Positions 10,824 through 63,873 of a stretch of DNA of 64,000 nucleotides are shown here, piece after piece; the first letter of the stretch is position 1; every line of letters begins with the position of its first letter. The stretch is from an uncultured Spirochaetia bacterium. GTDB taxonomy: Bacteria > Desulfobacterota_D > UBA1144 > Nemesobacterales > CSP1-2. The position numbers and the translations under genes are program-made. The notes beneath the pieces are model-generated. The model worked only from the letters and a program-made list of their open reading frames with translations, searched no databases and was not told the origin of the DNA. The stretch is from assembly GCA_964389705.1 (NCBI GenBank), contig CAYMEO010000002.1, positions 4,318-68,317 on the forward strand, written 5' to 3'.

Positions 10824-10900
10824 AATCTCTCACTCCTTTATTAGAAATGGTGTTTATTATTCCAATTCTAACCGTATAGAGACGTAATTAGTAGTTTACT

Positions 10901-19413: not shown

Positions 19414-19569
19414 TGTTTTTTACCTCGAAAGAATAAATTACCGATTTTCCCGTTAAAAGCAATAAGAGCGGGTAAAACTCGTATTGGTCTGTTGTGTGTA
19501 TCTTATGTCCCGTCGGTTTAAGAAGCCGATAAGAAATTCGCAATTGGTTTTACAGGTTTTTGTCCCGAC

Positions 19570-20430
19570 CTATAGAGGTATTACATCGTGAAAGCGGTCG
19601 TAGTCAATCAAAACGCGTCCATCCGGTGTTCTAGACAGTATATCCACAAAACGCATGTTCCAGAGGATTTCCTCTATGGTGAATGAATGGCGGGTGTGGA
19701 TTATCTGTGAAACAGTTTCATCAAGACCAGTAAGTGTAACTACAATCTCGGCTTCTTCCTTGGCCAACGAGTCCTTTGTTGCTTCATAGAGTGGACTTGT
19801 CTCATCAATTATGTGCATCACCGTCCACGTTAGAGAAAATATCGGCGTTCGATTGCGTACCAATTTGAGGTCGTAGAATCGGCGAATAGGTTGTCCCTCT
19901 GCAGTCACTTCGTTGCGTACCAGATTCATCTGCATCTGTGCTTCTAGTATTTGGTTGCGACGCTCGTTGGCTGCGCGAAACATAAGGGTTGTCATTCCAT
20001 TGAAAGGTGCAACAACCGCCACACGGCTAAAAAGCACCCTAGCTGTGGGTCTCGAGAATTTAGCGAACATAAGACCAGTAACTATAGCGAATCCAAGCAG
20101 ACCTATAAGTACCTCCATTGTGACTATTGTGTTCGCATAGAGCGTACGTGGATATACACTTCCATAGCCGACTGTGGCTATAGTATCAACACTAAAGAAA
20201 AAGGCATCGAGGAAGGAGCCTGGCCGGGCGTTCTCAAGGCAATTCCCTCCGGCCAGATATGCCAGAGCAAACAACGCATTGACAGCTATATAGAGTAGAA
20301 CAATGAGTACAAGAAACCTAGGCCATGATATGGTAAGAAATAAATGGTACAAGTCTCGCCAAAGATGTGATACACCCCAGGCTTTTGCTAGTACTACAGG
20401 GATAAGGTAGCGAAGGTATCTCGACTCCAT
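19570..20430 (-). CDS. Prokaryotic inward-rectifier-type K+ channel (KirBac family)
   Basis: Selectivity filter 'TIATVGYG'. Slide-helix/TM1 region 'LWRDLYHLFLTISWPRFL' resembles KirBac. A C-terminal beta-rich cytoplasmic domain follows. 286 aa. Confidence 0.8.
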   Translation of the reverse strand: MESRYLRYLIPVVLAKAWGVSHLWRDLYHLFLTISWPRFLVLIVLLYIAVNALFALAYLAGGNCLENARPGSFLDAFFFSVDTIATVGYGSVYPRTLYANTIVTMEVLIGLLGFAIVTGLMFAKFSRPTARVLFSRVAVVAPFNGMTTLMFRAANERRNQILEAQMQMNLVRNEVTAEGQPIRRFYDLKLVRNRTPIFSLTWTVMHIIDETSPLYEATKDSLAKEEAEIVVTLTGLDETVSQIIHTRHSFTIEEILWNMRFVDILSRTPDGRVLIDYDRFHDVIPL

Positions 20431-48746: not shown

Positions 48747-49061
48747 ATGACAGAGTTGAAAATCCAACGTTGGGAAAAACCGGAGCCACCGGATGAGCGC
48801 ACATTGCGTGAGTACCTTCGTCTGGAGGGTTTATCTCCATATGTCTGGTCTAATACACCAAGTGATACATATCCCGCACATACCCATCCTTACGATAAGG
48901 TAATCTACGTTGTGCGTGGCTCGATTACCTGGGTTCTGCCTCAGATAAATCAGGAAATTGAGACCCGTGCCGGTGATCGTCTGGATTTGCCACGCGGCAC
49001 CATTCATGCCGCACGCGTTGGCCCAGAAGGTGTTACCTGCCTCGAGGCGCACAAAGATTAG
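48747..49061 (+). CDS. Cupin-domain protein (in a GC-rich segment)
   Basis: ORF track GTG at 48717 overlaps the terminator palindrome; the ATG at 48747 is preferred. Cupin motifs 'HTHPYDKVIYVVRGS...GDRLDLPRGTIHAARVG'. GC appears by eye to be about 55-57% (not measured), against a roughly 45% background. Confidence 0.55.
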   Translation: MTELKIQRWEKPEPPDERTLREYLRLEGLSPYVWSNTPSDTYPAHTHPYDKVIYVVRGSITWVLPQINQEIETRAGDRLDLPRGTIHAARVGPEGVTCLEAHKD

Positions 49062-49745
49062 GTATGTATTTTAGTCTTCAAGCCTTTAGGGGCTCAATTT
49101 CTAATCTACTGACTTTAGGAAGACTTACAAAGTATATTTTCGCAAAGGAAGAGATTACAGAGATTACAAAGTGGTTGACATAAACCCAGTTAAGGGGGGT
49201 AAATTCTCATGGCTCAGCCCATTTTTCGTACTCTAGAGCTGGTTTGTGTCTGTCTCCTTGGTCTAGTAACCCTTACGGCTGCAGAGCGGTCTGTAACTGG
49301 TATATTTCGCGGGAATAGTAATGATGCCCTCCTCGCCTTCGCCACCGCACATGCCGAAGAGCCGTTCTCAGGTAAGGAGACTGTTATTGTCATACTCACT
49401 GAAAGGGATACGGGGGTGAACAGCATCCTGAAATCATGGCCTCCTTTGGCAAGTTCGGCAGCGTCCTTATTGTAACTTTCACCCGCTCTGGGCATCTCGT
49501 TGGCACTGAAGTAGCGCACACGGCACATAAAAAGACGCCGTTTAGCTCTCTTGGCAAACTCAAGGTAGAGGACTTTCATATCGAGCAGGGCGAGGTGCGG
49601 GGATAGGCTCTCGACAGGGGGCGAAGTGGAGTCCCTAGACCAGACCTGGGAGGTCAACTTGAGCTTCCGTGCAGAGCTCACGTAGATATTGGATCTAATA
49701 ATCAAAAATTAGCAGGCTCAAAGGTCTGAGTAGAAGCGATATCAA

Positions 49746-50906
49746 TCAGACTAGAATTCTGCTGTAGAACTCCGCGTGCCTTAGTGCTGTATTTCTCCAA
49801 CTATAAACTTCTGCCGTTTTTTTTCCGTTTTTTATAAGTTTATCTCGAAGCTCAGGTTTTTCTAAAACACTAATAATCCGCTGAGCAAGAGATTTATAAT
49901 CCATAGGAGAAACAAGTAGAGCGTTTTCCTCGTCTTTTAAATACTCTGTCAATGGTTCTATACTGGAAGCAACTACTGGAAGCTCCGATGCCATAGCCTC
50001 AAGTACAACAAGCCCCCATCCTTCTTTGACAGAAGGAAAAACAAGTGCATCTGCTGCTCTATAGAGATTGGGCATAGAACCATCGGGAACGGCACCAAGG
50101 AGGATTATGTCTTTACCAAGGTTTAATTCCATACTCTTGATTTCGGAGAAGAATTCCTCACGGTATGCCCTGTAATCAAATAGTGTCTCACCGCCTCCTA
50201 TTAGCCATACTAGACGCTGGCCTTTTGCCTTGAAATACTGACTTACAATCTTAAATGCCCTAAGTGAGGTTAATGTATTTTTGCGAGGCTCAATTCCGCC
50301 TATGCTCAGAATTACCTTACATCCACTTACAGAAAAAATATCTTTTGCCTTTTCTTTTGAAAGTCTTTCTTGAATATTAAATCTCTCTACATCCACGCCA
50401 TTATGAATGACAGTGGGACTTAATGAATATCTGGAGCGGAGTTCTTTTTTCCAAAACTTGCTGACAGTGATTAAGTAATCTGGCTCCACGATGCTTCTGA
50501 TTTGACAGTCAATTAGAGACTGTGATGTAAAGTCATCTATGTGATGGATAGTTCTAACGAATGATTTTATTAGGCCCCAATTACGTAAATTGAGAAGGGC
50601 ATTTGCAGAAACGCAATCTTCGGCGTGGTATATCTCATAGTCTCTGGATGCGGAGACCAGGAAGTTAGAATATATGTTTATATATCGCTTTACCTTTTCA
50701 TCTATTGTCTCTTCACTAGGAGTAGGGCAGGGGATAAGGGTGTACGGGACGCTTACAGTTCTAAAAAAACCTTCTCCTGAACTCAGAGCATATACATGAA
50801 CCCGGTGCTTAAGGCGGGATAATTCCTCAGCCAGATTTAGTGTGTGAACTACACCGCCCCTTGGCTTTGTCGAATAGGTAAGGAGTGCGATCTTAAGTGA
50901 TTTCAT
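49746..50906 (-). CDS. GT4-family glycosyltransferase (MSMEG_0565-like position in cluster)
   Basis: GT-B fold. C-terminal 'EGWGLVVLEAMASELPVVAS' is the GT4 EX7E region. Last gene of the minus-strand cluster. Confidence 0.8.
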   Translation of the reverse strand: MKSLKIALLTYSTKPRGGVVHTLNLAEELSRLKHRVHVYALSSGEGFFRTVSVPYTLIPCPTPSEETIDEKVKRYINIYSNFLVSASRDYEIYHAEDCVSANALLNLRNWGLIKSFVRTIHHIDDFTSQSLIDCQIRSIVEPDYLITVSKFWKKELRSRYSLSPTVIHNGVDVERFNIQERLSKEKAKDIFSVSGCKVILSIGGIEPRKNTLTSLRAFKIVSQYFKAKGQRLVWLIGGGETLFDYRAYREEFFSEIKSMELNLGKDIILLGAVPDGSMPNLYRAADALVFPSVKEGWGLVVLEAMASELPVVASSIEPLTEYLKDEENALLVSPMDYKSLAQRIISVLEKPELRDKLIKNGKKTAEVYSWRNTALRHAEFYSRILV

Positions 50907-51927
50907 CTATTAAATCTTCTATGCTTTTCATCTCCATCTGTGAAACTAGAAATCGAATCCCATAATAGATGCCGATTGCGATATCGGCTCCTGAAGTCTG
51001 CCCCATTTCTATTACTGTCTTTGAGGCAGAGGCAACTCGATCTGGGTCTTTTGTGATGAGGCTGTAGATCAATTCAATTACAGATTTATGCCCCTCGCCG
51101 CGTCGGGCTTGATCCAAAAGGGTTTGGCTATATATTGTGGTTTTCCCTTTTGCTATCCGACATATCTCAGATGAGACTCTTTTGTAGAAGCTAATCTGTT
51201 TTTTTCTGCCTTTAAGTAGCGTGTTTCCGCATATGTTCAGGCTAAGTATTAGTCCCAATAGGAAATCGTCACATGAAGGAGTGAGTCCAGGACCAAGCCC
51301 AATGATGGGTAGAGCCCCGCTTAAGACCATGTGATACTGGCCTCCGAACAATCCCCGCATGAGCATGTCGATATAGGGTCTTGCCCTTTCCGAGAGTGTG
51401 GGCTTTTGGGGTTGAAGGAAGAATTTAAGCGGGCCGTATAATTCCACGTTCTCTAGAAGCGGAACGAGCCCTTCTCTACTTTGACACGTATAAATCACGT
51501 CTCTGAGCACCCTGAGATTTAGACTTATACTCATTGGGCTTATAAGAGGGCCTTTAGGGAATGGAGGTGGAGCCCAGTTAGAGGCTTTTGCCAGTTTGAT
51601 AGTAATTATATTATCTCCAATTATCAGGATACTATTATCGGATTTCACCTCCATTCCTTCCAAAGCGCCGATTGATTTAAAGCTCCTATCCCCAAAATCT
51701 TTTATTAGAATAGATACAGGACTGATATAGTTCTCATTTTTAATTACATTAATTAGGAAATTATTACTGGTTTGTATATAGAACGCATGGTCAAAGACGC
51801 TGTGCACTTTATACTTTTTAGAGTTGCTTAGTATTTCTAGTGCCCTATAGCCAATAAATTCGGCTACTAACAGGTTGGAACGGGTTTTCTTATTCATAGA
51901 CATGGATAGGAAATTACGTTTGTCCAC
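50893..51927 (-). CDS. Conserved hypothetical protein with 'GLGPGLTPSCDDFLLG' motif (DUF2877/YlbF-AllH-like or MSMEG_0572/Sll0783-like candidate)
   Basis: 344 aa from the GTG at 51927; alternative ATG at 51903. Gly-rich 'IIGLGPGLTPSCDDF' motif. Family assignment is from memory and needs an HMM check. Confidence 0.45.
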   Translation of the reverse strand: MDKRNFLSMSMNKKTRSNLLVAEFIGYRALEILSNSKKYKVHSVFDHAFYIQTSNNFLINVIKNENYISPVSILIKDFGDRSFKSIGALEGMEVKSDNSILIIGDNIITIKLAKASNWAPPPFPKGPLISPMSISLNLRVLRDVIYTCQSREGLVPLLENVELYGPLKFFLQPQKPTLSERARPYIDMLMRGLFGGQYHMVLSGALPIIGLGPGLTPSCDDFLLGLILSLNICGNTLLKGRKKQISFYKRVSSEICRIAKGKTTIYSQTLLDQARRGEGHKSVIELIYSLITKDPDRVASASKTVIEMGQTSGADIAIGIYYGIRFLVSQMEMKSIEDLIDEIT

Positions 51928-52180
51928 GTCTTTGCCAATGCGGACGTTTCCCAGTTGGATATGAACTGAGAAGAATTATTTTTCTGCGGACATTCCAGGG
52001 AATCCTCAAATAAATCGGAACAAATATATTTCGCCAGAAAAATGGAATGGGTCCTTTTTTTCTATATGGCTTTGCACAGAGACCAGGATAACGGGCTGCC
52101 ATCTCATCCGCGGCGACTTCAAGAAGGTATTTTTCAGCATTTTTTCTCAACCACTCACCGAAGGATTTTTTTTCAGGCAT
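51914..52180 (-). CDS. Small hypothetical protein (MSMEG_0570-like position)
   Basis: 88 aa with ATG start. It sits between the flavin oxidoreductase and the DUF2877-like gene in a tightly packed operon. Confidence 0.35.
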   Translation of the reverse strand: MPEKKSFGEWLRKNAEKYLLEVAADEMAARYPGLCAKPYRKKGPIPFFWRNIFVPIYLRIPWNVRRKIILLSSYPTGKRPHWQRRGQT

Positions 52181-52220
52181 TCTTGCTTTCTCTCTAGCCA
52201 GTCTGTGTTTTATCTCCGAA

Positions 52221-53570
52221 CTATTTCATCTTTCCTAACTTGCCAAGGCCTGCCTGTGCAGCTAAAGCAATTGGCTCCATTAAGGCTCCAATCGGAGGAG
52301 AATAAACATTCTCCATCCATGCAAAATCCTCGAGCGTAGCCCCACGCTTTATAGCAAATGCAAGAAAGTCTGCTCTTTCTTTAATTCCTTCACCACCTGC
52401 CATTTGAGCACCCATTACGCGAAGCGTTTTCGGGTCAGCAATGAGTTTTACGAGAATCCTACTTACACCTGGATAGTATCTTGCCCTCGAAATTCCCTGT
52501 GCAGAAGCAACGAAATGAGGAATCCCCAAGGCCTTATGCAGGGTTTCGCCGAGTGAAACTCCGCCAATATGGACTTTTCCGCCTACCATTCCCCAAGGGA
52601 CGTATACTGGATCATAAGCACGGTCAGCACCTGCGGCGTTTGCTCCTGCAACCCTTCCTTGAGAATAAGCGTGACTTCCTGAAAGACCTTGAATAGGAAG
52701 ATCAGTCACACCATGGATGACCTCTACGCAGTCTCCGGCTGCATAAACGTCCTTTGCAGATGTTCTCATATGATCATCCACGATGATTCCGCCAGTTGCT
52801 CCAATCTTTAGTCCCGCTTCTCGTGAGAGGCGATTATTTGGCTTTTTATGTGTGGCAATCACAACCACATCACAGGGAATTTCTCCCTCTGTCGTGGCGA
52901 CGGATCTTATCTTCCCATCTGAACCGTTAAATCCAAGGACCTTTGTTCCAAGATGGATCTTTGCTCCGAGTTCCTCAAGGGACTTCTGCACCGGTTGCAT
53001 AATATCTGGATCGGCAACCTCAGACATAAGCCATGCTCCTTCGTCTACGAGATGGGTTTCAAGCCCTCTGTGCGCGAGATTTCCTGTCATCTCAATTCCA
53101 AGCGGCGTTGCGGATACGACGACGACCCTTTTTATCTGATCGAGGATTTTATCAAATTCCATTGCACGGCGTATGTTTTTAACATAGTGTGTTCCTTCTA
53201 AATCAATTCCTGGGATGTTGGGTTTTTCATATTCAAACCCAGTAGCAATGACAAGGCGATCCCACTCAAACACCTGGGAGCCGACACTTACTGTACGTTT
53301 GTTTATATCAATTCCTGTAACGGTTGTTTGGAGTCTTAGATCAATTCCAATCTCGGCATAATGCTCAGGGGTTTGAAGAAATAAGCCTTTAAAATCTGGG
53401 ATTTCCCTTCCGTGAACAAAGGGAATTCCACAGGGGCTGTAGGCTACATCTTCATACTCTGTAAAGAGGATTACATGGGCGTCTGGAGCAACGGCCCTTG
53501 CCGTTGATGCTGCTGAAATCCCTGCAGCACCTCCACCTACTACAATGATGCGAAGATTATTTTGAGCCAT
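52221..53570 (-). CDS. FAD-dependent pyridine-nucleotide disulfide oxidoreductase (CoA-disulfide reductase/NADH-oxidase family)
   Basis: GAGGTGA RBS. 'IIVVGGGAAGISAA' FAD Rossmann fold and 'YSPCGIPF' single redox Cys typical of the Nox/CoADR family. A second NAD(P) Rossmann fold. 449 aa. Confidence 0.8.
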   Translation of the reverse strand: MAQNNLRIIVVGGGAAGISAASTARAVAPDAHVILFTEYEDVAYSPCGIPFVHGREIPDFKGLFLQTPEHYAEIGIDLRLQTTVTGIDINKRTVSVGSQVFEWDRLVIATGFEYEKPNIPGIDLEGTHYVKNIRRAMEFDKILDQIKRVVVVSATPLGIEMTGNLAHRGLETHLVDEGAWLMSEVADPDIMQPVQKSLEELGAKIHLGTKVLGFNGSDGKIRSVATTEGEIPCDVVVIATHKKPNNRLSREAGLKIGATGGIIVDDHMRTSAKDVYAAGDCVEVIHGVTDLPIQGLSGSHAYSQGRVAGANAAGADRAYDPVYVPWGMVGGKVHIGGVSLGETLHKALGIPHFVASAQGISRARYYPGVSRILVKLIADPKTLRVMGAQMAGGEGIKERADFLAFAIKRGATLEDFAWMENVYSPPIGALMEPIALAAQAGLGKLGKMK

Positions 53571-53616
53571 ATTAAACTCACCTCACTTAAGCTAAGACCT
53601 ACATATTCTTTATAAG

Positions 53617-54750
53617 TCAGTTAACATCATGCGATTTCGAGTTGAATTTTTTAAACCTCACATTCCTCGGATTCAATGCCCTCTCAAAATCGGGAAGCGC
53701 TGAGCACTCGCCACAGCTTACACACCCTGCCCTACTGCTCTTTGATCCACCGTCATATTTCGAGAGTATCTTTGCGGCTTCAGTATAAACATATTCCATC
53801 ACATGAGGCTCCGGAGGTTTTACATTCTCCATGGGTGTTCCTGCAATTGGACGGAATGGGACGATAAACGGATAAACTCCAAGATAGGCACAAAGGGCGA
53901 CGCCGTTTATTATGGTCTCTAATTTTTCTCCGAGCCCGACTAAAACATATGTGCTAACCTGCCATCTTCCAAAAACATTGACGGCCTCTTTCCATGTGTG
54001 TACATATCTATCGAATCCGATTTTTGCCTTTCCCGGGGTTATCTTCTCAAACACCTCCGGGTCGAATGTTTCAATATGAATCCCCAGAGCATCAACGCCG
54101 CAGTCTTTTAACCTCTGAAGCCAGCTCAAATCCTCAGGAGGGATTATCTGGAGCTGAATCGGGAGACCTGTTGCCTTTTTTACCTCTGAGCATATTTCGA
54201 TGTATTTCTTCAGCGCCTTTTCCTCATCCTTTGCAACTCCGGATGTAAAAACTACGTTCGTTATGCCGTCGAGTTCTTTTGCACGCGATATGGTTTCAAC
54301 GAGGCTTTTCGGATCCTTAAATCCCACCGTACTTCTGTCTTTGAGTGTAAGTTCAATCCCACAGAATTTACATCGCCTTGAGTCCTCCCAGAAGACGCAT
54401 GTTTGAAGGAGAGTCGTAGCAAACGTTGTAGGGCAGTGGAGGAGTCCGATCTTTCCCATAGGTATCCCCATTGACGTTGTATATTCATAAAACTTTGCTG
54501 CTCCCATGAGTTCGACCTGATTCAGGGCAATCCCATCTCGGAATACCCAATATTCGCCATTTATTTGATCGAGGTAATATGGAGAGGAATGGACGAAATC
54601 TCCAACAACTGGGATATTCCCTTCGATGTCGGGAAGAATCTTTAGATGGATTCCTCCGGTAGGCCCTGCTCCGCCCCTCCTTATATTCCTCGTATCGGGA
54701 ATCCTCAGTCCATAACTCTGCAGCTCTACTTTCAGGGCCTTTGAATCCAT
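53617..54750 (-). CDS. Radical-SAM-like Fe-S protein with non-canonical Cys spacing (MSMEG_0568-like position)
   Basis: Start re-set to the ATG at 54750 behind AAAGGAGGAG. 'CVFWEDSRRCKFCG' gives CX8CX2C rather than CX3CX2C. Additional C-terminal 'CVSCGEC'. ~100-aa N-terminal extension. Confidence 0.45.
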   Translation of the reverse strand: MDSKALKVELQSYGLRIPDTRNIRRGGAGPTGGIHLKILPDIEGNIPVVGDFVHSSPYYLDQINGEYWVFRDGIALNQVELMGAAKFYEYTTSMGIPMGKIGLLHCPTTFATTLLQTCVFWEDSRRCKFCGIELTLKDRSTVGFKDPKSLVETISRAKELDGITNVVFTSGVAKDEEKALKKYIEICSEVKKATGLPIQLQIIPPEDLSWLQRLKDCGVDALGIHIETFDPEVFEKITPGKAKIGFDRYVHTWKEAVNVFGRWQVSTYVLVGLGEKLETIINGVALCAYLGVYPFIVPFRPIAGTPMENVKPPEPHVMEYVYTEAAKILSKYDGGSKSSRAGCVSCGECSALPDFERALNPRNVRFKKFNSKSHDVN

Positions 54751-54929
54751 AATAAATCTCCTCCTTTTGATTAGGCGCTCAGCTGTTCTCACAATCCTAG
54801 CTAAATGGAAATAGCCGAGCGCCTATATTCCTGTTCAAGTGGCAGGGGCAATCACCTCAAACTGCTTTACTGTAGAATGCGAGAAATGAAAATAATACAA
54901 TCTATCTATCACCCCTGGGAAGTAGCCAA

Positions 54930-54942
54930 GCGGATTATCCGC
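54930..54942. promoter_or_regulatory. 13-bp perfect palindrome GCGGATTATCCGC between the DsrE-like and radical-SAM-like genes
   Basis: Overlaps the stop codon of the upstream gene, in the 190-bp gap that precedes the strong RBS of the radical-SAM-like gene. Could be an operator or a terminator stem. Confidence 0.25.
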
Positions 54943-55433
54943 TATACAGTCCATGTGCTAAACATCATTGCACCTGCCCTGTGGTGTTCAATTACTATAT
55001 CTAGGATATCGGTCGGATGTATTGGTCTGACACCCTCTAACATATCCTCTTCTCTTACACCTATGAGACAGGCAGCTGAGAATCGACATGCGTAGACCTT
55101 TATTCCTTCATTGAGCATTCTTTGAACGAGATTGGGGTAGAGCTGTATTCCTGCACCATAGCCGTCGTCTCCTATGTTTGGCCAGCCCCTGTAGACGGGT
55201 ATAGCAGAGGCCGGGCCATAGAAGACAACACTTACATCATATCCCTTTTTCTTACATCTTATAGCCGTCAGCATATTGATACCGGCTACCGAACCCTCAT
55301 ACGGAACAGTATGGACAAGAAATAGCGCCTTTTCTCCGGGATTCGCCTTGTAATCCGGAAATACCTTTTCCTCATAATTGACAATTGCCTTTCCCTTTTG
55401 TGGTTTTTCTCCTTTTACCCTTTCTACAGCCAT
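54942..55433 (-). CDS. Hypothetical protein (no family assigned; tentatively DsrE/DsrF-like by length)
   Basis: Start re-set to the ATG at 55433 behind AAGGAGGG. 164 aa with conserved Cys. Assignment is tentative. Confidence 0.35.
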   Translation of the reverse strand: MAVERVKGEKPQKGKAIVNYEEKVFPDYKANPGEKALFLVHTVPYEGSVAGINMLTAIRCKKKGYDVSVVFYGPASAIPVYRGWPNIGDDGYGAGIQLYPNLVQRMLNEGIKVYACRFSAACLIGVREEDMLEGVRPIHPTDILDIVIEHHRAGAMMFSTWTV

Positions 55434-55528
55434 TTTTATTCCCTCCTTGGTTTTATATTCAATTTGGCCAATCCTAAGACACCAAACCAGAAGCCAGTCG
55501 AAATCCCAATAATTTCCCCCCTTGACCT

Positions 55529-56374
55529 TCATCTAGAATAGAGCTTCTGGGCGTTTTCCCAAAAAATCTTATTTTTTAACTCTTCTGAAATCTTTGCACC
55601 CTCAACCTTCCAATACTCTGAGGGGAAGTCTCCCCAAGGCGTATCAGAGGCAAAGATCACATTATCGGTGCCTATGCCCGTGCGCTCGATCTCGTGAAGC
55701 AACCACCGTGAGCCAAAACCAATAGCCCATGTGGTATCCGTGTAAACCTGGTAGCCCTCTTTTACCAACTCAATGAACTTAGGAATAAGCCTTATGTGGC
55801 CGCTTACGCCGCCTCCCATATGGACTATATGGATTTTAATCCGCTTTCCAAATTCCTTTACAAACTCAAAGGCGTTCCCTACATCGGAGCCACCTCCGGG
55901 ACTTGTGTGAATGTGGAGAACGAGGTTATTTTCCTCAGCAGCATTCACAATGCTATTCCATATTCCCCTTGTTGTATCGTCCCATTCCGCAGGCCTATAA
56001 GTTCCGCCAAGAAGACATGTGGCTTTTAGTGCCACAATACCTTTCTCTTTTACATGCCTTAGAGCTTCTTCTGTTCGCTCCTTATCTTTTGCCATACCTG
56101 AGACCCAAATGGCTCCTACAAGTCTGTCGGCTTTATGGACGCTATCAATCACAAGGGGATTTAGGGTAAAGGGCTGCCCTGAATCGGGTACACCGTAATT
56201 GGATATAACCATTGCCCGATCTATCCCATACTCGTCCATGTGCTTTATGTATTCCTTTGAGGATGGGTATTCTATTACAGTTGGCTTTACGGGTTCTTTA
56301 AGGTCATAAAACTTGTATGCGGCCAACTCGCCTATGTGAGTATGGGCATCAAATACCTTTCTGTTTACCTTCAT
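55529..56374 (-). CDS. Metal-dependent amidohydrolase (amidohydrolase-2/TIM-barrel family)
   Basis: Start re-set to the ATG at 56374 behind AAGGAGGTGA. 'VFDAHTHIG' HxH metal-binding motif. A later 'HIHTS...HMGGG' His cluster. Confidence 0.7.
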   Translation of the reverse strand: MKVNRKVFDAHTHIGELAAYKFYDLKEPVKPTVIEYPSSKEYIKHMDEYGIDRAMVISNYGVPDSGQPFTLNPLVIDSVHKADRLVGAIWVSGMAKDKERTEEALRHVKEKGIVALKATCLLGGTYRPAEWDDTTRGIWNSIVNAAEENNLVLHIHTSPGGGSDVGNAFEFVKEFGKRIKIHIVHMGGGVSGHIRLIPKFIELVKEGYQVYTDTTWAIGFGSRWLLHEIERTGIGTDNVIFASDTPWGDFPSEYWKVEGAKISEELKNKIFWENAQKLYSR

Positions 56375-56604
56375 CTGATTCACCTCCTTTACTTTATCTT
56401 ATTATAAAAGCCAAAAAAGAGCAATCATTTTTTCAGGTTGCCTCCTTGAATCTCTTTCGCAATCAATATGCCACTTGTTAAAATACTCTTCGATTGTCAG
56501 GAGGCTGATTTTTGAAAACATCCATCTAACTTGTGCTTAATGTCTGGGCACAGGGTATTAAAAAGGCATCATTCTATCCTCCATGATTTTCAAAGCCATC
56601 CCGA

Positions 56605-57543
56605 TCACTGAGTTATTTCCGTTCCGCCCTTTCCTTTTAATGCGTTGTCTATTCCTTCGAGCGATGTTATGATTGCTTTCTTTCCACCCGAATCGAGAAA
56701 TTTAATCGCGGCTTCAATCTTAGGTCCCATGCTTCCTGGTGGGAAATGCCCTTCTGCCAGATAGTGCCTGGCTTCTTTAAGTGTCATCTTGCTTAGATTC
56801 TTTTGCTTTGGCGTTCCATAGAAAATAGACACCTGATTTACAGATGTGACTAAAAGGAGTATCTCCGCACCGATAAGACTTGCAAGTCTCTCTGCCGCAA
56901 AATCCTTATCAATCACCGCGGCTACTCCTTTGAGTTTTCCCTTTTTATCTTGAAGTACTGGGATTCCACCGCCTCCGCATGCTATTACGACAAAATTCCT
57001 TTTTATCATCTCTTCAATCTCTTCCTTTTCAACTATGTCAACGGGCTTTGGAGATGGCACAACACGCCTCCATCCCCTTCCTGAATCTTCTCTCATTTGC
57101 CAGCCCCTTTCCCTCTCGAGTTTTTCGCTTTCTTCTTTGTTAAAGAATGGACCGATAAACTTCGTAGGATTCTTAAATGCGGAGTCATTCTCAGAAACCA
57201 ATACTTGAGTTACAAGGGAAACAACTGGTTTTTTTATTCCATTTTTAGTAAACGTATTTCTCAGGGTCTGCTCTATCATATACCCTATCTGTCCCTGTGT
57301 CATTGCATCACAGACATCAAGGGGCATCGGTGGAATGATATCAGCCAGGGATTCCTGCTGCATGAGAAGATTTCCAACCTGAGGGCCGTTACCATGGGTG
57401 ATCACGACCTGATAGCCCGAATCAAAAAGACTCAAAATCTCACTGCACATCTTCTCAGTTCTCATCAACTGATCGGCGTAACTGCTTTTACCACTAAAAT
57501 CCATAAGGGCATTTCCACCAAATGCCACTACAGCTACATTCAT
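56605..57543 (-). CDS. arcC: Carbamate kinase
   Basis: GGGAGAG RBS. 'VVAFGGNAL' and 'ITHGNGPQVG' carbamate-kinase signatures. 312 aa. Confidence 0.85.
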   Translation of the reverse strand: MNVAVVAFGGNALMDFSGKSSYADQLMRTEKMCSEILSLFDSGYQVVITHGNGPQVGNLLMQQESLADIIPPMPLDVCDAMTQGQIGYMIEQTLRNTFTKNGIKKPVVSLVTQVLVSENDSAFKNPTKFIGPFFNKEESEKLERERGWQMREDSGRGWRRVVPSPKPVDIVEKEEIEEMIKRNFVVIACGGGGIPVLQDKKGKLKGVAAVIDKDFAAERLASLIGAEILLLVTSVNQVSIFYGTPKQKNLSKMTLKEARHYLAEGHFPPGSMGPKIEAAIKFLDSGGKKAIITSLEGIDNALKGKGGTEITQ

Positions 57544-57559
57544 CTACCTTCTCTCCCTA

Positions 57560-59122
57560 TTAAATCTCCAGCCCTTTTTCCCCTCTTGTTATAATCCACC
57601 CTGCAACCCTTGAGGCAAGGGCGTTTGTAGGAAAAACTAATACCCCGATTTCCACTAGTTTTTTCTCCTGTGATTTTAAATCCTGTGGGTCTTTTTCAGT
57701 GCCACAGACATGAGCCACAAAGGCTATAGAACGCCTTTTATTCATTGCTATTTTTTTTGCCTCTTTAATTGCCGGGATGAGGTCTCCAGCAGGGTCAGGG
57801 CTTGACACGTATCCAAGGACTACATCGAAAAGTATTACAGCCGTGGTTGGATCAGAGGCCTCTTTTATTAATCTCTCTTTTCTCAGGGTTGCATCTATCA
57901 TTGGATGAGGGCGCCCCAATGTGAATTCCTCCTCACCTAAGTCAATGCATGTATGGCGCTTACTACGATTTGAGTCATCCAATTTGTTTTCTTTATATAA
58001 CGGGGCGTTGGAATAAATTTTTCCTAAAATCGGTGTTAGAACGCATTGAGCCTCATAGCAAAGGGTGCCTCCTGAAAACAGACCCCGAATGTATTTCTGT
58101 TTAGGATTGAGTAACTGGATAAACCTCTTGGCCTGTTTCTTCCAACTTTTATCGGAGAGAATATAGTGCTGATCCGTATTTCCATTGACGAGTCTCAAAG
58201 CTTCTAAAGCCGCCTCTTCTAATGTTGAAGAAAAGCGGATGTTTGAATCTATTTTTTTATCGAATTTATTTCCGAGAAAGCAGACAACTGCGGGCTTCTC
58301 GGATTCACGAACCGAATTAATCACCTTTTGCGCTACCTCCTCAGACGGCGGTTTGGAAACGAGGAGAAGGGCTTGTGTGCTTCTATCATTTTTGAGCATC
58401 CTTATCGCTTCTATTGCCATAATGCCGCCGACCTTTTCGGATAGGTCTCTTCCCCCTAGTCCGATTGCATGAGAAATCCCTGAACCCCGGTTGTGTATGA
58501 GGCTTGTGACCTCCTGCATTCCTGTTCCTGCTGCAGCGATTACCCCAATCGGTCCTCGATTCACAACATTTGCAAACCCAAGACCAACTCCATTTATTAT
58601 TGCTGTGCCACACCCCGGCCCCATCATCAGTAGTTCCCTCTTTTTTGCCCTTTCTTTAAGCTCTATTTCCTCTTCTACTGACAGATTATCACTGAAAAGA
58701 AACGTATGAAGCCCTCTTTCTATTGCCTTTGCCACCTCTAGTTTTGCGTATTGACCGGGAACGGAAATAATGGCAAGGTTTGCCTGAGGTAGGGCATTGT
58801 ATGCGGAATCGAGATTCTTATATTCTGTCTTTACAGTATCTCCAAAACGCGTTGGAGAGAGAAGTAGATCCAATTTTTCTATCGCCTCTTTTGCTGACTT
58901 TTCGGATTCTGCTTCGATGGCTACGATCAAATCATTTGCGCTTGCCGATTCAGGAATCTGCCTTATTATCCCTGTGTCTCTTAGCATCCTTAGATTAGCC
59001 TCTGTTGCCATAATCGCAGAGGCTTTTCTAATGCCGGGTAGAGTACTAAGCTTCTGGCTTATCTGCATAAGCTTCAGTGAGTCCTGATAATAGTTTTTCT
59101 TAATCGTGCTGACTACCGCCAT
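57560..59122 (-). CDS. FdrA-family protein (CoA-binding/succinyl-CoA-synthetase-alpha-like; AllF-like)
   Basis: 520 aa. N-terminus 'STIKKNYYQDSLKLMQIS' parallels E. coli FdrA. Gly-rich CoA-binding and ligase-CoA domains. Confidence 0.8.
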   Translation of the reverse strand: MAVVSTIKKNYYQDSLKLMQISQKLSTLPGIRKASAIMATEANLRMLRDTGIIRQIPESASANDLIVAIEAESEKSAKEAIEKLDLLLSPTRFGDTVKTEYKNLDSAYNALPQANLAIISVPGQYAKLEVAKAIERGLHTFLFSDNLSVEEEIELKERAKKRELLMMGPGCGTAIINGVGLGFANVVNRGPIGVIAAAGTGMQEVTSLIHNRGSGISHAIGLGGRDLSEKVGGIMAIEAIRMLKNDRSTQALLLVSKPPSEEVAQKVINSVRESEKPAVVCFLGNKFDKKIDSNIRFSSTLEEAALEALRLVNGNTDQHYILSDKSWKKQAKRFIQLLNPKQKYIRGLFSGGTLCYEAQCVLTPILGKIYSNAPLYKENKLDDSNRSKRHTCIDLGEEEFTLGRPHPMIDATLRKERLIKEASDPTTAVILFDVVLGYVSSPDPAGDLIPAIKEAKKIAMNKRRSIAFVAHVCGTEKDPQDLKSQEKKLVEIGVLVFPTNALASRVAGWIITRGEKGLEI

Positions 59123-59145
59123 TTTTTTCTTCTTCGTATCTACTA

Positions 59146-60450
59146 CTATGCCGCCAAATCATATTTCTCTCCAAAGGTCATGAGGGCCTTTACGAAGCAC
59201 TCATAAGGAGCCTTCACAATTCCGGCTCCGATCTGTCCCACTCCTGTGGCTTTATGAATCACTGCGCTATTTATGCTTGGAAGAATCCCCGTTTCTATGA
59301 CCTTACGAATATCAATCCCCGTCGGGATTCCCTCGAAGTCTAGAGAGGGGATTGCAAATTTGGGATTTTTAATAATCGTAATCAAACCCATCTGCTTCGT
59401 TATATCTATGGCTTCCTGGAAGCCGCCGCCGGCAAATGAGGCCATAGCAGGCGCAGAAGCAATAGCGAATCCGCCAAGTCCCATAGTCTCTATAATTGCG
59501 CTATCCCCTATATCAGGAGCGCCCTCATCGGAACTATACCCTGGATTATATAGGGCATCGAGAAGATGAGGAGAGGGGGCTACAAACCAGCTATCTCCAA
59601 GCCCGCTTACGCGGATACCAAAATCTGTTCCATTTCGAGACATGGCAGTAACTATTGTAGAATCCTCTATATCACGGGCCGCATCCATTGCGAGTTTACA
59701 GCCAGTCATAGTTATATTGAGGAAGAAGTGACTGTTTCCGGCAATGAATCTGTAGACCTGTAGGGCGACATCACGAGATAAATCTATTGAAAAAAGAGGC
59801 TCAATGATGCTTTTGAGAAAGATGTTTGTAGAGGCAGCGTGACGGTTATGGCACTCATCTCCCATCTGAATTCCCTGAGCTAATATATTCCAGATCGAAA
59901 TGCCTTCTGCCTTTCTAATTACACTTTTCATCACGGGACCTAATACATCACGCATCCATCTGAGTCTCTCAAGCGTTTCATCTCCAAAAGCCCCAAACCA
60001 CAGAACCTTGCCCCCGCCTTCATTAAAAGTAGAATAGGCAGTTCTGCCGTATGTTAAATCCTTTGAGACAACTACGGGCATGGAAGGGGAGATGATTCCT
60101 GTCATAGGGCCTACGGCATCATGGTGATGGTTCGGAGAGATTTTAATTTTATTTGCCTGAATTAGCCTCTCCGCTTCTTGATTGTCACTGGCCAGTCCCT
60201 CAAAAATCAAGGCTCCTCTAATAGCCCTCTTCATTGGGTCACACACCCTTTCCCATTCAATTGGCGGACCTGCATGGAGTATGGTATTAGGGGTCATATT
60301 GGGTATGGCATTGAGTGCAGTATTTACATCAACGAGAACTGGCTCAACAGAGAGTATTCTCTCTATAGCAACCGCATTTGCCTCATTAATCCGCTCTCCC
60401 AGGTACATTGTCTCTCTTGATTTTCCCTGAATTTTGGTTTTGGTAGCCAT
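59146..60450 (-). CDS. DUF1116-family protein (YlbE/AllG-like)
   Basis: 434 aa, immediately upstream of fdrA. DUF1116 proteins co-occur with FdrA in the cluster organisation seen here. Confidence 0.65.
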   Translation of the reverse strand: MATKTKIQGKSRETMYLGERINEANAVAIERILSVEPVLVDVNTALNAIPNMTPNTILHAGPPIEWERVCDPMKRAIRGALIFEGLASDNQEAERLIQANKIKISPNHHHDAVGPMTGIISPSMPVVVSKDLTYGRTAYSTFNEGGGKVLWFGAFGDETLERLRWMRDVLGPVMKSVIRKAEGISIWNILAQGIQMGDECHNRHAASTNIFLKSIIEPLFSIDLSRDVALQVYRFIAGNSHFFLNITMTGCKLAMDAARDIEDSTIVTAMSRNGTDFGIRVSGLGDSWFVAPSPHLLDALYNPGYSSDEGAPDIGDSAIIETMGLGGFAIASAPAMASFAGGGFQEAIDITKQMGLITIIKNPKFAIPSLDFEGIPTGIDIRKVIETGILPSINSAVIHKATGVGQIGAGIVKAPYECFVKALMTFGEKYDLAA

Positions 60451-60463
60451 GTAATCGAGTTCC

Positions 60464-61045
60464 TCACGAGGGCGGGACAGCGAGCACCCATATTAGCTTT
60501 GCCCGGACGTTGCCTATATTCCTCCATCTATGTTCTGCAATCGTTCTAAAATGGAGGCTATCGCCGGGGTTAAGTACATATACCTTGTTATTTACCTGAA
60601 ATTCCATTTTTCCTTCAATGCAATAGACCAACTCCTCTCCGCGATGACTCATGGGTTTTCTGCCACTTGACGCCCCAATCTCAACCACCGCGTAAGCAGC
60701 AGTCATGATGAAGTCACCGTATTTTTTCGCAGAGACGCATTGTAAGTCTAACCCTTTCTTAAAGGTGAATATTGACTCGCGCTTACCCGAAGGGACAAAG
60801 ACGGCGTCCTCTTCTTCTTCCTCTATAAAGAAGCTGACCTTTTTCCCTAGGGCGTCTGCTATTTTCATCATGGTAGTTATTGTTGGGGTTATGCCATTCG
60901 ACTCAATCCTGTGAATCCCGGCTGCAGAGATACCGGATTTTTGGGCTAAGTCCTGAAGAGACCAACCCTTTTCAATGCGAAGGGCCTTTATTTTCTCCCC
61001 CAGCTTTGATATAATTCTGTCTACCTGATTCTTCTCTTCAACCAT
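60464..61045 (-). CDS. XRE-family HTH transcriptional regulator with C-terminal cupin sensor domain
   Basis: N-terminal HTH 'LRIEKGWSLQDLAQKSGISAAGIHRIESN'. C-terminal cupin (HRGEELVYCIEGKMEF...PGDSLHF). Confidence 0.8.
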   Translation of the reverse strand: MVEEKNQVDRIISKLGEKIKALRIEKGWSLQDLAQKSGISAAGIHRIESNGITPTITTMMKIADALGKKVSFFIEEEEEDAVFVPSGKRESIFTFKKGLDLQCVSAKKYGDFIMTAAYAVVEIGASSGRKPMSHRGEELVYCIEGKMEFQVNNKVYVLNPGDSLHFRTIAEHRWRNIGNVRAKLIWVLAVPPS

Positions 61046-61056
61046 CTACTTACCTG

Positions 61057-62067
61057 TTAACTGATATTAGAATTTATCTTTTCAATTCCAATCAAAGGCT
61101 CTGTTTTAAAGTCCCAAAAGAGATTTTTTTCGCCCGAATCCCTAACGAAAAGAACTTGACAGTCAGAGGTTACTTTCCCGATCTGCTCACACACTAAATC
61201 AAGCTTTCTGAAAATCTCTTTAACCTTTGCAGTATTATGGGGTCTTAAAGACAGAACAAATCCAAAACTCGGGAACGTAATCAGCCAATCTTTTAGAGAG
61301 ACATTAGAGGGCATAGGGATTTTATCAATGTAAATCTCTGCACCCTTCTGGGAACACTCAAGAAGCATTAATGTTGAGCCTATGAGTCCAGCCATACTTA
61401 TGTCCTTTCCTGCATCTGCCAGTTCATCTTCGGCTATCTGTGGAAGAAGCTCCAACTGGGTTAGAGCCTCTTTGTCACTTAAGTTGCTTGAAGAATCCCA
61501 GAAATTAAAACCCGAATAGAACCTCCCATTGAGGTTGGAGACAAAAACCAGATCGTCATCTGTCTTGGCATCAAAGCTCGAGATCAACCTCTTGGCCTTA
61601 CCAAGTATAGAAACGGAGAGCGAAGAGCAACCCGATTCGAGGGTAAAATGTCCGCCAACTACGGGAACCTTATAACGTAATGCATTGTCTCTAATTCCAT
61701 GGAGTACTTTCTCAGCCTCTTCGGAATCTGATGCGAAGATCACATCTACAATTGCCAGAGGTCTGCCGCCCATAGCGTATATATCATTTACATTTGTAAG
61801 AACAGATGTGCGCCCAGCAAGGTAAGGATTTGATTTTAAGAGGGGGGGGTAAACACCTTCTGCAGCAAGAAGCAGGTAACCGTCTTGGGTTTTAATGGAT
61901 GCCGCATCGTCGCCAATAAATATATCATTGCCGTTGATTTGTGGGGTCTGAGGTAATAGGTGCCAGAGGTTTTTTAACTTTGCCTTGTGGTCTAAACGGG
62001 TAGAAGAACGTAAAGCAGAAATTAGCTCATGCATTTGTTTTTCTTGTTCATATGTGTTTGCATTCAT
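61057..62067 (-). CDS. AIR-synthase-related (PurM-like) protein, sll0787-type
   Basis: PurM N-domain motif 'FIGDDAASIKT'. 336 aa. Lies 16 nt downstream of the GNAT gene; the two are encoded as one fused protein in some other genomes. Confidence 0.65.
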   Translation of the reverse strand: MNANTYEQEKQMHELISALRSSTRLDHKAKLKNLWHLLPQTPQINGNDIFIGDDAASIKTQDGYLLLAAEGVYPPLLKSNPYLAGRTSVLTNVNDIYAMGGRPLAIVDVIFASDSEEAEKVLHGIRDNALRYKVPVVGGHFTLESGCSSLSVSILGKAKRLISSFDAKTDDDLVFVSNLNGRFYSGFNFWDSSSNLSDKEALTQLELLPQIAEDELADAGKDISMAGLIGSTLMLLECSQKGAEIYIDKIPMPSNVSLKDWLITFPSFGFVLSLRPHNTAKVKEIFRKLDLVCEQIGKVTSDCQVLFVRDSGEKNLFWDFKTEPLIGIEKINSNIS

Positions 62068-62083
62068 GACTAAAATATGCTTC

Positions 62084-62533
62084 TTAAGCCAAATCCAAAT
62101 CCGCTTCCATTAGCTGATGGGGAAAACCTTGATAAGTCACTGGCTCTCCTACCGTTTTCCATCCCAATCTCTCAAAAAATCTCACGTTCTGGGGCTGAAT
62201 ATATGCTAGGAATCTCTTGCATCCGTTGGATCTTACCGTTTTTACAGCGAGTCTCACAAGCCCTGGTCCCACCTGTCCGTTGCGATATGCAGGAGCAACT
62301 CCAAGTCGTCCACCGAACCAAGTATCTTCTTTCTCCCTATAGCATCTGACTGCTCCTACCACCCTTCCAGTTGATTTATCAATTGCAACTATATGCACTG
62401 CGCTCCGGTCATAGTGGTCTATGTCGGTTTCAGGAAATATTTTCTGTTCTTGGACAAAGACATCGTGGCGGAGGCGAAAATACTCTTCTAATTCCTCTGC
62501 AGTTTCAGCGATCTTGAATATAAATTCCCCCAT
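62084..62533 (-). CDS. GNAT-family N-acetyltransferase (Sll0786/MSMEG_0567 N-terminal-domain-like)
   Basis: Start re-set to the ATG at 62533 behind GGAGG. GNAT motif A 'RLGVAPAYRNGQVGPGLVRLAV'. Confidence 0.7.
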   Translation of the reverse strand: MGEFIFKIAETAEELEEYFRLRHDVFVQEQKIFPETDIDHYDRSAVHIVAIDKSTGRVVGAVRCYREKEDTWFGGRLGVAPAYRNGQVGPGLVRLAVKTVRSNGCKRFLAYIQPQNVRFFERLGWKTVGEPVTYQGFPHQLMEADLDLA

Positions 62534-62709
62534 CTCCGCCTCCACGGAATTTATAGAAGAAGATACTCTCGAATATAACTTAGAATCGAGAACTCTCGTC
62601 TGTTATTTACTATATTCATCATTTTATCAACTTTGATAAACGTAGTCAAGGGCTTTTTTCTGCAGGAGTTGTAATTTGTGCCGTTTGTCTGTCTGTGTAG
62701 AATATCTCT

Positions 62710-63873
62710 ATGACATTTGGCGTTTACGTTCACATTCCATATTGTGTAAAGAAGTGCCCATACTGCGATTTTAATTCCTATGGTGTGGGAAAACGTATTC
62801 CGGAGAGGGAATATACGGGGGCAATTCTCAAAGAACTCGACCTCTATAGAGATTCAATAGAGGGGTCTTCTCTGAGTTCAATATTTTTCGGCGGTGGAAC
62901 ACCTTCTCTATTTTCCCCGGAGAGTATAGGGAAAATAATAGGTGAAATCTTGAAGGTGACCTGTCCTTTAGATTCAATTGAGATCTCATTGGAAGTAAAT
63001 CCAAAAACGGCGGACTTAGAAAAGTTAAGAGGTTTGTGTGACACAGGAGTAAATAGAATCAGCGTCGGAGTACAATCCTTTTCGGAAAGAAAACTTAAAC
63101 TACTTGGAAGGATAAATACATCTGATGATAGCAGGAAAACATTAGACGACATAATTAAGGTGGGATTTAAAAATTTCAATCTCGACCTTATGTTTGGGGT
63201 CTCCTTTGAAACCCTCGATGAGTGGAGAGCGGATTTAGAAGAGGCGCTTAGATTTAATACGACTCATATATCTGCCTACTGCCTTACGATTGAAGATGAT
63301 ACGGAATTTGGAGCGCTTTACTCAAATGGCAAACTACCGCTTCCCGATGAAGATACGCTCGCGGAGATGCTCTCTTTCACGTCTTATTTTTTAGAAGATA
63401 CCGGCTACAGACAATATGAGATTTCAAACTTTGCAAAGCCGGGGTTTGAGTGCAGACATAACCTCATTTACTGGAAAGGGGGAGATTATCTTGGGCTTGG
63501 CGCTGGTGCCCATTCGCACATTTCTTCGATTAGATTAAGTACTTGGGGGATTAGATGGGCGAACTTAAAAAATCCTGATGCTTATATGAAAGCGGTTTTA
63601 GATGGCAAAAAACCCCTAGCATTTAAAGAGTATCTCGAAAAAGATGAAGCCTTTGAGGATAGGATTCTTATGGGACTTAGGCTTCAAGAGGGAGTTAGTC
63701 TTACGAATATCAATGAGAGTTTTGGGACAAAACTGTGCTTAGACAAATTAGATTCCCTTATAGATAGTGGTTTTTTAGAGTTATCTGGTGATTTGATTCG
63801 ACTGAGTAAAAAGGGGATCCCAGTTTCAAACGAACTCATTATGAGGGTTCTTGACTCATTTGTTTTTGATTGA
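62710..63873 (+). CDS. hemW: Radical-SAM heme chaperone HemW (HemN-like, oxygen-independent coproporphyrinogen oxidase family)
   Basis: 'YVHIPYCVKKCPYCDFNS' CX3CX2C motif and HemN C-terminal domain. 387 aa. Confidence 0.9.
   Translation: MTFGVYVHIPYCVKKCPYCDFNSYGVGKRIPEREYTGAILKELDLYRDSIEGSSLSSIFFGGGTPSLFSPESIGKIIGEILKVTCPLDSIEISLEVNPKTADLEKLRGLCDTGVNRISVGVQSFSERKLKLLGRINTSDDSRKTLDDIIKVGFKNFNLDLMFGVSFETLDEWRADLEEALRFNTTHISAYCLTIEDDTEFGALYSNGKLPLPDEDTLAEMLSFTSYFLEDTGYRQYEISNFAKPGFECRHNLIYWKGGDYLGLGAGAHSHISSIRLSTWGIRWANLKNPDAYMKAVLDGKKPLAFKEYLEKDEAFEDRILMGLRLQEGVSLTNINESFGTKLCLDKLDSLIDSGFLELSGDLIRLSKKGIPVSNELIMRVLDSFVFD

Follow-up and report, generated by a model that had tools for sequence, protein, structure and literature searches.

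A predicted AllFGH-type carbamoyltransferase and carbamate kinase encoded within a nitrilase-less relative of the Nit1C/gpr gene cluster

A contig of an uncultured Spirochaetia bacterium (GenBank CAYMEO010000002.1) harbours, within the 64 kb analyzed here (the window, i.e. the whole stretch of DNA analyzed, in which all positions are counted unless a related locus is named), an almost gap-free string of 13 open reading frames (ORFs) on the minus strand, 12.8 kb in length (49746-62545). Four of these genes, referred to below as the module, encode relatives of the three E. coli oxamate carbamoyltransferase (OXTCase) subunits AllF, AllG and AllH as well as of carbamate kinase. Purified E. coli AllFGH interconverts oxalurate plus phosphate and oxamate plus carbamoyl phosphate (Kim and Kim 2024, PMC11326118), and its genes are co-transcribed with the gene of the catabolic carbamate kinase AllK in the allFGHK operon (PMC11326118). 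All ORFs named in an original prediction, made from the DNA letters of the window, were found to be present on the minus strand at the coordinates given there. FdrA, DUF1116 and carbamate kinase had been predicted to be contiguous, and the family models place them side by side at 56605-60450 with scores above the curated cut-offs. The AllG-type (DUF1116) subunit is encoded at 59146-60450 (PF06545, 278 bits against a cut-off of 27, 5e-83), the AllF-type (FdrA; succinyl-CoA-synthetase-alpha-like) subunit at 57560-59122 (NF004760, 501.7 bits against 433) and, directly downstream of the AllF gene, the carbamate kinase at 56605-57543 (TIGR00746 arcC, 414.6 bits against 358). Alignment of the AllG-type protein with E. 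coli YlbE showed 44 % identity over 414 amino acids (46 % with YahG), and the protein is matched by PDB entry 3CLQ at 9e-121. The AllF-type protein shares 39 % identity with E. coli FdrA and 42 % with YahF, and is matched by PDB entry 3DMY at 1e-84; its alignment with E. coli SucD was unreliable around the loop of the phospho-histidine. The carbamate kinase is 41 % identical to YbcF (AllK) and 44 % to YahI.

The candidate third subunit is the AllH-type (DUF2877) protein encoded at 50893-51927 (PF11392, 82.6 bits against 25, 4e-23), with a probable start at 51903 and a length of ~336 amino acids. It shares 27 % identity with YlbF over the C-terminal 169 amino acids (E 1e-10) and 30 % with YahE. 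The motif flagged in the original prediction, GLGPGLTPSCDDF, comprises residues 210-222 of this protein, and the motifs GxGxGLTPSxDDxLxG and GxTSGxD are invariant in the window protein, its remote relatives and E. coli YlbF and YahE. Chance homology to AllH was considered as well and is ruled out by the Pfam score and the invariant motifs. At E ≤ 1e-5 a total of 545 AllH homologues was found; among the best 120 of these, nearly all have a length of 317-365 amino acids, mostly ~333, and the named sources are metagenome-assembled Thermodesulfobacteriota, Deltaproteobacteria and Dadabacteria. An AlphaFold2 (AF2) model of the window protein (mean predicted local distance difference test score, pLDDT, 91.9) displays an N-terminal beta domain (18-118) and a C-terminal helical bundle (131-343); comparison of this model with solved structures yielded no structural relative. 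The third subunit had been placed five genes away from the others, and exactly five genes lie between carbamate kinase and AllH, encoding an Amidohydro_2 enzyme, Hyp1, a radical S-adenosylmethionine (radical SAM) protein, a flavoprotein and an 88-amino-acid protein.

The original prediction also held that no ureide-pathway genes accompany the module. This was confirmed for the 64 kb: tblastn searches with 18 proteins of the E. coli all region matched only the four module genes, and the 40 remaining large ORFs of the window, when scanned with Pfam, showed housekeeping functions only and no ureide-pathway gene. The rest of the window includes an RND efflux pump, ClpB, tRNA synthetases, Nuo subunits and an H+-pyrophosphatase. 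With the allantoin context absent from the window, the view that an allantoin-derived substrate is improbable holds, and allantoin-derived oxalurate is regarded as an unlikely substrate. The module resembles E. coli AllFGH-AllK in that the same three families and an arcC-type kinase are present and the AllH motifs are common to both. However, the allFGHK genes of E. coli are contiguous, while AllH in the window lies five genes downstream, past a 221-bp gap with a sigma-54-type element. Furthermore, no allB, allC, allD, allE or glyoxylate genes are found nearby in the window, and the module is located inside a cluster with radical SAM, GNAT, AIR (aminoimidazole ribonucleotide)-synthase-like and DsrE-like genes. 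The uncharacterized paralogous E. coli set yahE-yahF-yahG-yahI-yahJ shows a similar likeness (30, 42, 46 and 44 % identity for the first four) and has a gene of the metal-dependent amidohydrolase superfamily alongside. The window proteins share slightly more identity with the Yah proteins than with AllFGH, and neighbour-joining trees did not settle which of the two sets is orthologous. YahJ showed no BLASTP match (E ≤ 1e-3) to the Amidohydro_2 enzyme or other cluster proteins of the window, and no Nit1C-type core genes occur among the annotated genes from pdeL to yahL in E. coli. All E. coli comparison proteins were taken from the annotated K-12 genome.

Judged by their family assignments, the genes between the kinase and AllH are no random neighbours but belong to the core of a Nit1C/gpr-type cluster. 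Nit1C clusters have the canonical order Hyp1, nitrilase, radical SAM, GNAT, AIR-synthase-like, ORF6 (~100 amino acids) and flavoprotein; some lineages have a glycosyltransferase as well (Podar 2005, PMC1199592). Expression of Nit1C/gpr clusters rises strongly under nitrogen starvation, and the NitC nitrilase releases ammonia (PMC6039565, PMC11049912). The gpr cluster of M. smegmatis confers peroxide resistance. In the window, members of five of the eight Nit1C/gpr signature families (MSMEG_0565-0572 / Sll0783-0787), all scoring above their NCBIfam cut-offs, are interspersed with the four module genes. The string starts with the GNAT acyltransferase of the MSMEG_0567/Sll0786 family, the NitE equivalent (62084-62545; TIGR04045, 166 bits against 68), which also matches FeeM-like N-acyl amino acid synthase. 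It is followed by the AIR-synthase-like protein of the sll0787 family, the NitF equivalent (61057-62067; TIGR04049, 355.7 bits against 321; Pfam AIRS and AIRS_C). Hyp1 (NitB), a DsrE-like protein of 163 amino acids in the MSMEG_0572/Sll0783 family, is encoded at 54942-55433 in an ORF that extends to 55532 (TIGR04044, 177.5 bits against 110); its homologues have 161-163 amino acids and an invariant Cys116. The radical SAM protein of the MSMEG_0568 family, the NitD equivalent, is encoded at 53617-54792 with a probable start at 54750 (TIGR04043, 339 bits against 304). Last in the string is the glycosyltransferase family 4 (GT4) protein of the MSMEG_0565 family (49746-50906; TIGR04047, 407 bits against 260), with BshA and MshA as its next-best family matches. 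A glycosyltransferase of the MSMEG_0565 family is shared by the window and the beta-proteobacterial and mycobacterial Nit1C versions.

The window cluster lacks three genes of Nit1C: the nitrilase, which is its defining gene, the MSMEG_0570 small protein and the MSMEG_0569 flavoprotein. A verified TIGR04048 query for the Nit6803-family nitrilase gave no tblastn match in the 64 kb at E ≤ 0.01, CN_hydrolase matched none of the scanned ORFs of the window, and neither the MSMEG_0570 small protein (TIGR04042) nor the MSMEG_0569 flavoprotein (TIGR04046) matched the window by tblastn at E ≤ 0.01. The reference nitrilase, ORF6 and flavin-monooxygenase (FMO)-type proteins came from a Paraburkholderia locus (L062; related loci are designated by such numbers) and were verified as TIGR04048, TIGR04042 and TIGR04046. 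In place of the missing genes the window has eight others: AllG, AllF, carbamate kinase, AllH, the Amidohydro_2 enzyme, a regulator with helix-turn-helix (HTH) and cupin domains, a flavoprotein resembling CoA-disulfide reductase (CoADR) and the 88-amino-acid protein. The regulator (60464-61045; Pfam HTH_3 and Cupin_2) has a PuuR-like architecture and weakly matches PuuR; it is kept in AllF/G-type clusters and absent from nitrilase-type clusters. The CoADR/NADH-oxidase-like flavoprotein (52221-53570; Pyr_redox_2 and Pyr_redox_dim, with CoADR as best NCBIfam below its cut-off) has the single-Cys motif YSPCGIPF and is distinct from the flavin-monooxygenase-type flavoprotein of MSMEG_0569. The 88-amino-acid basic protein (51914-52180) has no Pfam or NCBIfam match and no family assignment; its occurrence, at 34-83 % identity and directly behind the CoADR-like flavoprotein, is restricted to clusters of the AllF/G type. 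Its position is analogous to that of the MSMEG_0570 small protein of Nit1C, and the two sequences are unrelated.

One genome per species was scanned with a Hyp1 alignment, yielding at least 533 loci. The counts below are based on the best 80 of these and six loci recovered from assemblies, together 86 Hyp1 loci. The Hyp1 family was found to be split, with one group 69-93 % identical to the window Hyp1 and the remainder at most 54 % identical. In two loci (L006 and L007) Hyp1 is 90 % and AllG ~80 % identical to the window proteins, and by these identities a relative of Candidatus Dadabacteria is the probable source of the window. The order AllG, AllF, carbamate kinase, Amidohydro_2, Hyp1, radical SAM, flavoprotein, small ORF, AllH and GT4 is conserved: it was found in ten or more loci of Dadabacteria, Thermodesulfobacteriota and bacterium HR37 in which AllH is only 43-65 % identical to that of the window. 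The exact order was seen in three contexts with AllH identities of 65, 53 and 49 %, and also in a locus on a 3.1-Mb contig. Of the original description of AllH as displaced, the five-gene gap stands; the recurrence of the order in relatives indicates a conserved architecture rather than a local accident. A stray fragment of a ureide pathway was considered too and is ruled out by the conserved, interleaved synteny. Complete but rearranged sets of the window type occur in Actinomycetota, Pseudomonadota and marine loci, with Actinomycetospora, Pseudonocardia and Nocardioides as cultured actinomycetotal carriers. The subunit genes of the module are seldom contiguous in related clusters. In Actinomycetota AllG and AllH are paired and AllF and carbamate kinase are located elsewhere in the cluster, and in a marine locus (L092) a GlcD/GlcF-like oxidase gene pair (17577-20203 of that locus) parts AllH from AllG, carbamate kinase and AllF. 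This pair encodes a GlcD-like FAD oxidase and a GlcF-like CCG iron-sulfur protein.

Clusters with the nitrilase form a separate type. They were found in Burkholderiales, Bradyrhizobium, Methyloversatilis, Rhodomicrobium and Prochloron and carry the nitrilase, ORF6 and the FMO-type flavoprotein; AllF, AllG, AllH, carbamate kinase, Amidohydro_2, the HTH-cupin regulator, the CoADR-like flavoprotein and the 88-amino-acid protein were all absent from these loci. The nitrilase is present in 19 and AllF or AllG in 47 of the 86 Hyp1 loci, and in none do they occur together (Fisher p = 1e-8, a descriptive value since the loci lack phylogenetic independence). Of the 47 loci with AllF/G, 34 also have carbamate kinase, which adjoins AllF in most, and AllH was detected by hidden Markov model in 25.

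These distributions bear on two other views of the module. The first is that FdrA and DUF1116 form an acyl-CoA (or acyl-phosphate) synthetase, as in the historical annotation, that supplies the donor for the GNAT enzyme, with carbamate kinase only loosely related. The CoA_binding and Ligase_CoA domains and the similarity to the alpha subunit of succinyl-CoA synthetase speak for this, as does the presence, in the same transcription unit, of a FeeM-like GNAT in need of an activated acyl donor. However, the sole characterized member of the three-protein family is a carbamoyltransferase and not a CoA ligase, the kinase keeps company with AllF/G at the frequency given above, and the nitrilase-type clusters have the same GNAT without FdrA. 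We consider an acyl-CoA synthetase improbable. The second is that of an ordinary oxalurate-degrading AllFGH-AllK set, serving cross-fed allantoin products and lying beside unrelated Nit1C-like genes. The family assignments are indeed the same as in E. coli, and allFGHK sets without upstream purine genes in metagenome-assembled genomes (MAGs) of nitrifiers have been interpreted in this way (PMC12625717). Yet the interleaved order is kept across phyla with AllH in a second, Hyp1-led unit, the set is strictly tied to the nitrilase-less cluster type, the proteins resemble YahEFG at least as much as AllFGH, and the 64 kb lack ureide genes. An ordinary oxalurate-degrading set is for these reasons very improbable.

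The promoter arrangement is shared between the two cluster types. An exact match to the sigma-54-type element TGGCAT-N5-TTGC is located on the minus strand at 56458-56473, in the 221-bp gap between carbamate kinase and Amidohydro_2 and thus before the Hyp1-led unit. The element is kept in L003 (5073-5087) and L005 (4580-4594), with a near-match in L008. In nitrilase-type loci, TGGCAY-N5-TTGC occurs 85-115 nucleotides upstream of Hyp1; the Hyp1-upstream element was found in L056, L062-L065, L074, L079 and L082-L085. Across 90 loci, 15 of the 19 exact matches have this relative position. For induction of the window cluster by nitrogen starvation or cyanide, this shared promoter position is indirect evidence only. 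A search that tolerated mismatches gave 25 sites against 21.5 expected, which is chance level; conservation was seen only for the exact-match site in the gap. In the marine locus L092 a histidine kinase and a sigma-54 activator are encoded directly upstream of the cluster. The nit1C cluster of Pseudomonas is under control of the sigma-54-dependent regulator NitA (PMC11049912). The string in the window probably comprises two transcription units, one running from GNAT to carbamate kinase and one, including AllH, from Amidohydro_2 to GT4.

Taken together, the module is best explained, on sequence grounds, as a third lineage of the FdrA/DUF1116/DUF2877 carbamoyltransferase with carbamate kinase, beside AllFGH-AllK and YahEFG-YahI, and as an integral part of a nitrilase-less relative of the Nit1C/gpr cluster. 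The distribution is best explained if the Nit6803-type nitrilase and the set of AllF, AllG and carbamate kinase, which Amidohydro_2 and AllH usually accompany, are alternative to each other in this cluster family. The module may then serve as a nitrogen-releasing exit. The core enzymes (DsrE-like Hyp1, radical SAM, GNAT, AIR-synthase-like protein and glycosyltransferase) would make or process a nitrogen-containing intermediate. In the nitrilase type, nitrogen would leave by nitrile hydrolysis. In the window type the intermediate would bear a carbamoyl (ureido or acyl-urea) group, which the AllFGH-like enzyme would cleave with phosphate to carbamoyl phosphate, and carbamate kinase would convert the latter into ATP, NH3 and CO2. 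This proposal draws on the chemistry of E. coli AllFGH, the induction by nitrogen starvation, the release of ammonia by the nitrilase, the mutual exclusivity and the shared sigma-54 control; it is advanced tentatively, with the case for it and the case against it close to balanced. That the AllFGH-like enzyme and carbamate kinase constitute an ATP-conserving alternative to the Nit1C nitrilase, equivalent to it in function, is a more doubtful step. A carbamoyl substrate other than oxalurate would be required, with an acyl-urea or ureido compound as the natural candidate. An oxalurate-like product derived from an alpha-hydroxy ureido acid would be in keeping with the GlcD/GlcF-like oxidase of L092. 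This 2-hydroxy-acid oxidase could take the role that ureidoglycolate dehydrogenase has before OXTCase in E. coli.

Several observations weigh against the module as a functional counterpart of the nitrilase. The best-scoring loci were chosen, and the sample is biased toward the cluster type of the window. The exclusivity would also fit non-equivalent roles in two diverged pathways, and the flavoprotein type, the small protein and the regulator are swapped alongside the nitrilase. Neighbour-joining trees of AllG, AllF and carbamate kinase were poorly resolved and dependent on midpoint rooting, and did not show a clade of cluster proteins separate from the E. coli proteins. Moreover, in 11 loci of Limnocylindria/Chloroflexi and Desulfovibrio, AllH adjoins the AIR-synthase-like gene and no AllF or AllG is encoded within 10 kb. 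Examples are L087 (AllH at 10564-11388) and L088 (6565-7377), and further L044, L047, L052, L058, L059 and L081. For these high-GC loci called genes were used as gene models, since naive longest-ORF calling gave spurious antisense ORFs. The AllH-only loci also hold Amidohydro_2, Hyp1, radical SAM, GNAT and AIR-synthase-like genes, and those of Limnocylindria/Chloroflexi additionally carry DUF7714, ComA (phosphosulfolactate-synthase family) and two Lyase_1 genes; DUF7714, ComA and Lyase_1 genes were not found in the Desulfovibrio loci L044 and L081. The association of AllH with the nitrilase-less core is hence at least as close as its association with AllF/G. Its occurrence in loci without AllF/G implies that its role may be tied to the core and not solely that of a carbamoyltransferase subunit: AllH may be what connects the transferase with the core, or may serve a second function.

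The Amidohydro_2 TIM-barrel metalloenzyme, encoded at 55529-56383 with a probable start at 56374 (PF04909), had been suggested in the original prediction as a source of the carbamoyl donor. It has 941 homologues, ~60 % identical across many phyla, in which DxHxH and the metal ligands D9, H11, H13, H154, H156, H185 and D244 are invariant. Its AF2 model (pLDDT 91.4) is closest to the decarboxylases ACMSD, gamma-resorcylate decarboxylase, LigW and IDCase and to LigI lactonases, at 14-18 % identity. The gene is present in 26 of the 47 AllF/G loci and in 11 loci without AllF/G, following the nitrilase-less core and not AllF/G specifically. As the closest folds in this model comparison are not amide hydrolases and the distribution tracks the core, a role in making the carbamoyl donor by amide hydrolysis is somewhat weakened.

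The direction of the reaction has also to be considered. In a biosynthetic direction, carbamate kinase or cellular carbamoyl phosphate would feed carbamoylation, by the AllFGH-like enzyme, of a small-molecule or cofactor intermediate. The AIR-synthase-like protein might then dehydrate a carboxamide to a nitrile or thiocyanate in the manner of HypE, or a low-molecular-weight thiol-type product might be formed. In maturation of [NiFe]-hydrogenase, HypE makes the cyanide ligand after HypF-dependent carbamoylation. The combination of an AIRS-family protein and carbamoyl-phosphate enzymes in one operon mirrors this HypE/HypF logic. The likeness is one of analogy only: the window has no HypF homologue or hydrogenase genes, and its AIR-synthase-like protein, a member of the sll0787 family, lacks a C-terminal Cys. 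In favour of biosynthesis are also the assay of E. coli AllFGH in vitro, run from carbamoyl phosphate and oxamate to oxalurate, the BshA/MshA-like GT4, GNAT, single-Cys CoADR-like flavoprotein and DsrE-like Cys protein, together with OsmC and ComA in relatives, and the peroxide resistance conferred by the gpr cluster of M. smegmatis. However, the kinase scores as arcC-type, of which the characterized bacterial members are catabolic, the alternative gene of the sister clusters is an ammonia-releasing nitrilase, and control by nitrogen starvation and sigma-54 suits scavenging better than synthesis of a nitrogenous product. A biosynthetic direction is judged unlikely, although it deserves to be kept in mind.

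Both components are of known kinds, and their joining in a conserved nitrilase-less cluster type appears undescribed; in the literature searched, no paper on FdrA, carbamate kinase and radical SAM together was found, nor, among the top-listed papers of a wider search, a link of FdrA to this cluster. Two poorly understood systems are physically and evolutionarily coupled here. For the FdrA/DUF1116/DUF2877 carbamoyltransferase, identified only in 2024, a single substrate is known. Nit1C/gpr clusters are widespread, are induced by nitrogen starvation or cyanide and are needed for cyanide assimilation and peroxide resistance, and for twenty years (since 2005) no chemistry has been assigned to them beyond the nitrilase. 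The alternation of nitrilase and carbamoyltransferase/kinase narrows the possible functions of the core. If the nitrogen-releasing exit is correct, Nit1C-type clusters would process a one-carbon C-N unit, with exit at the nitrile level (hydrolysis) or at the carbamoyl level (phosphorolysis), and the first non-ureide substrate of the three-subunit carbamoyltransferase family would be at hand. AllH/DUF2877 would then act as an adaptor between the transferase and the radical-SAM/AIRS/DsrE-like core. For annotation it follows that allFGHK-like genes in MAGs do not automatically denote oxalurate or allantoin degradation. Cultured carriers are available for genetics in Actinomycetospora succinea DSM 45775, Pseudonocardia hydrocarbonoxydans NBRC 14498 and Nocardioides guangzhouensis.

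Some minor observations concern single genes and the flanks of the string. Hints of thiol chemistry are seen in the GT4 near BshA and MshA, the GNAT, the YSPCGIPF flavoprotein and the DsrE-like Hyp1 with its invariant Cys. The cluster motif of the radical SAM protein, CVFWEDSRRCKFC, has the spacing C-X8-C-X2-C instead of the canonical C-X3-C-X2-C, and a Cys spacing of 8 or 9 is kept in 64 related loci. A candidate sigma-70-like promoter with TG (TTGACT-17-TAAAAT, 62621-62649, minus strand) is the top-scoring site on this strand and lies ~75 nucleotides upstream of the string; the total number of sigma-70-like sites in the region is at chance level. An Rfam scan of 49000-63000 gave only a chance-level miRNA match and no riboswitch or leader. 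Downstream of GT4 the window has ~700 bp with only one ORF, without homologues (49214-49705). In close relatives the cluster extends past GT4 (L004, 13383-18800; L005, 12181-18067; also L007-L013) with genes for OsmC, a stand-alone HMA_AllF_N protein (133-152 amino acids), a 188-amino-acid protein, Methyltransf_20, an aminotransferase, PALP and an ornithine/diaminopimelate decarboxylase, and none of these extension genes was found in the window. OsmC genes occur in 27 related loci (e.g. L005, 12181-12591), and relatives also carry ComA. The locus of bacterium HR37 (L005) has, just before AllH, a second gene of the amino-acid-kinase family (8993-9994), encoding a protein of 333 amino acids that is 34 % identical to the carbamate kinase of the window.

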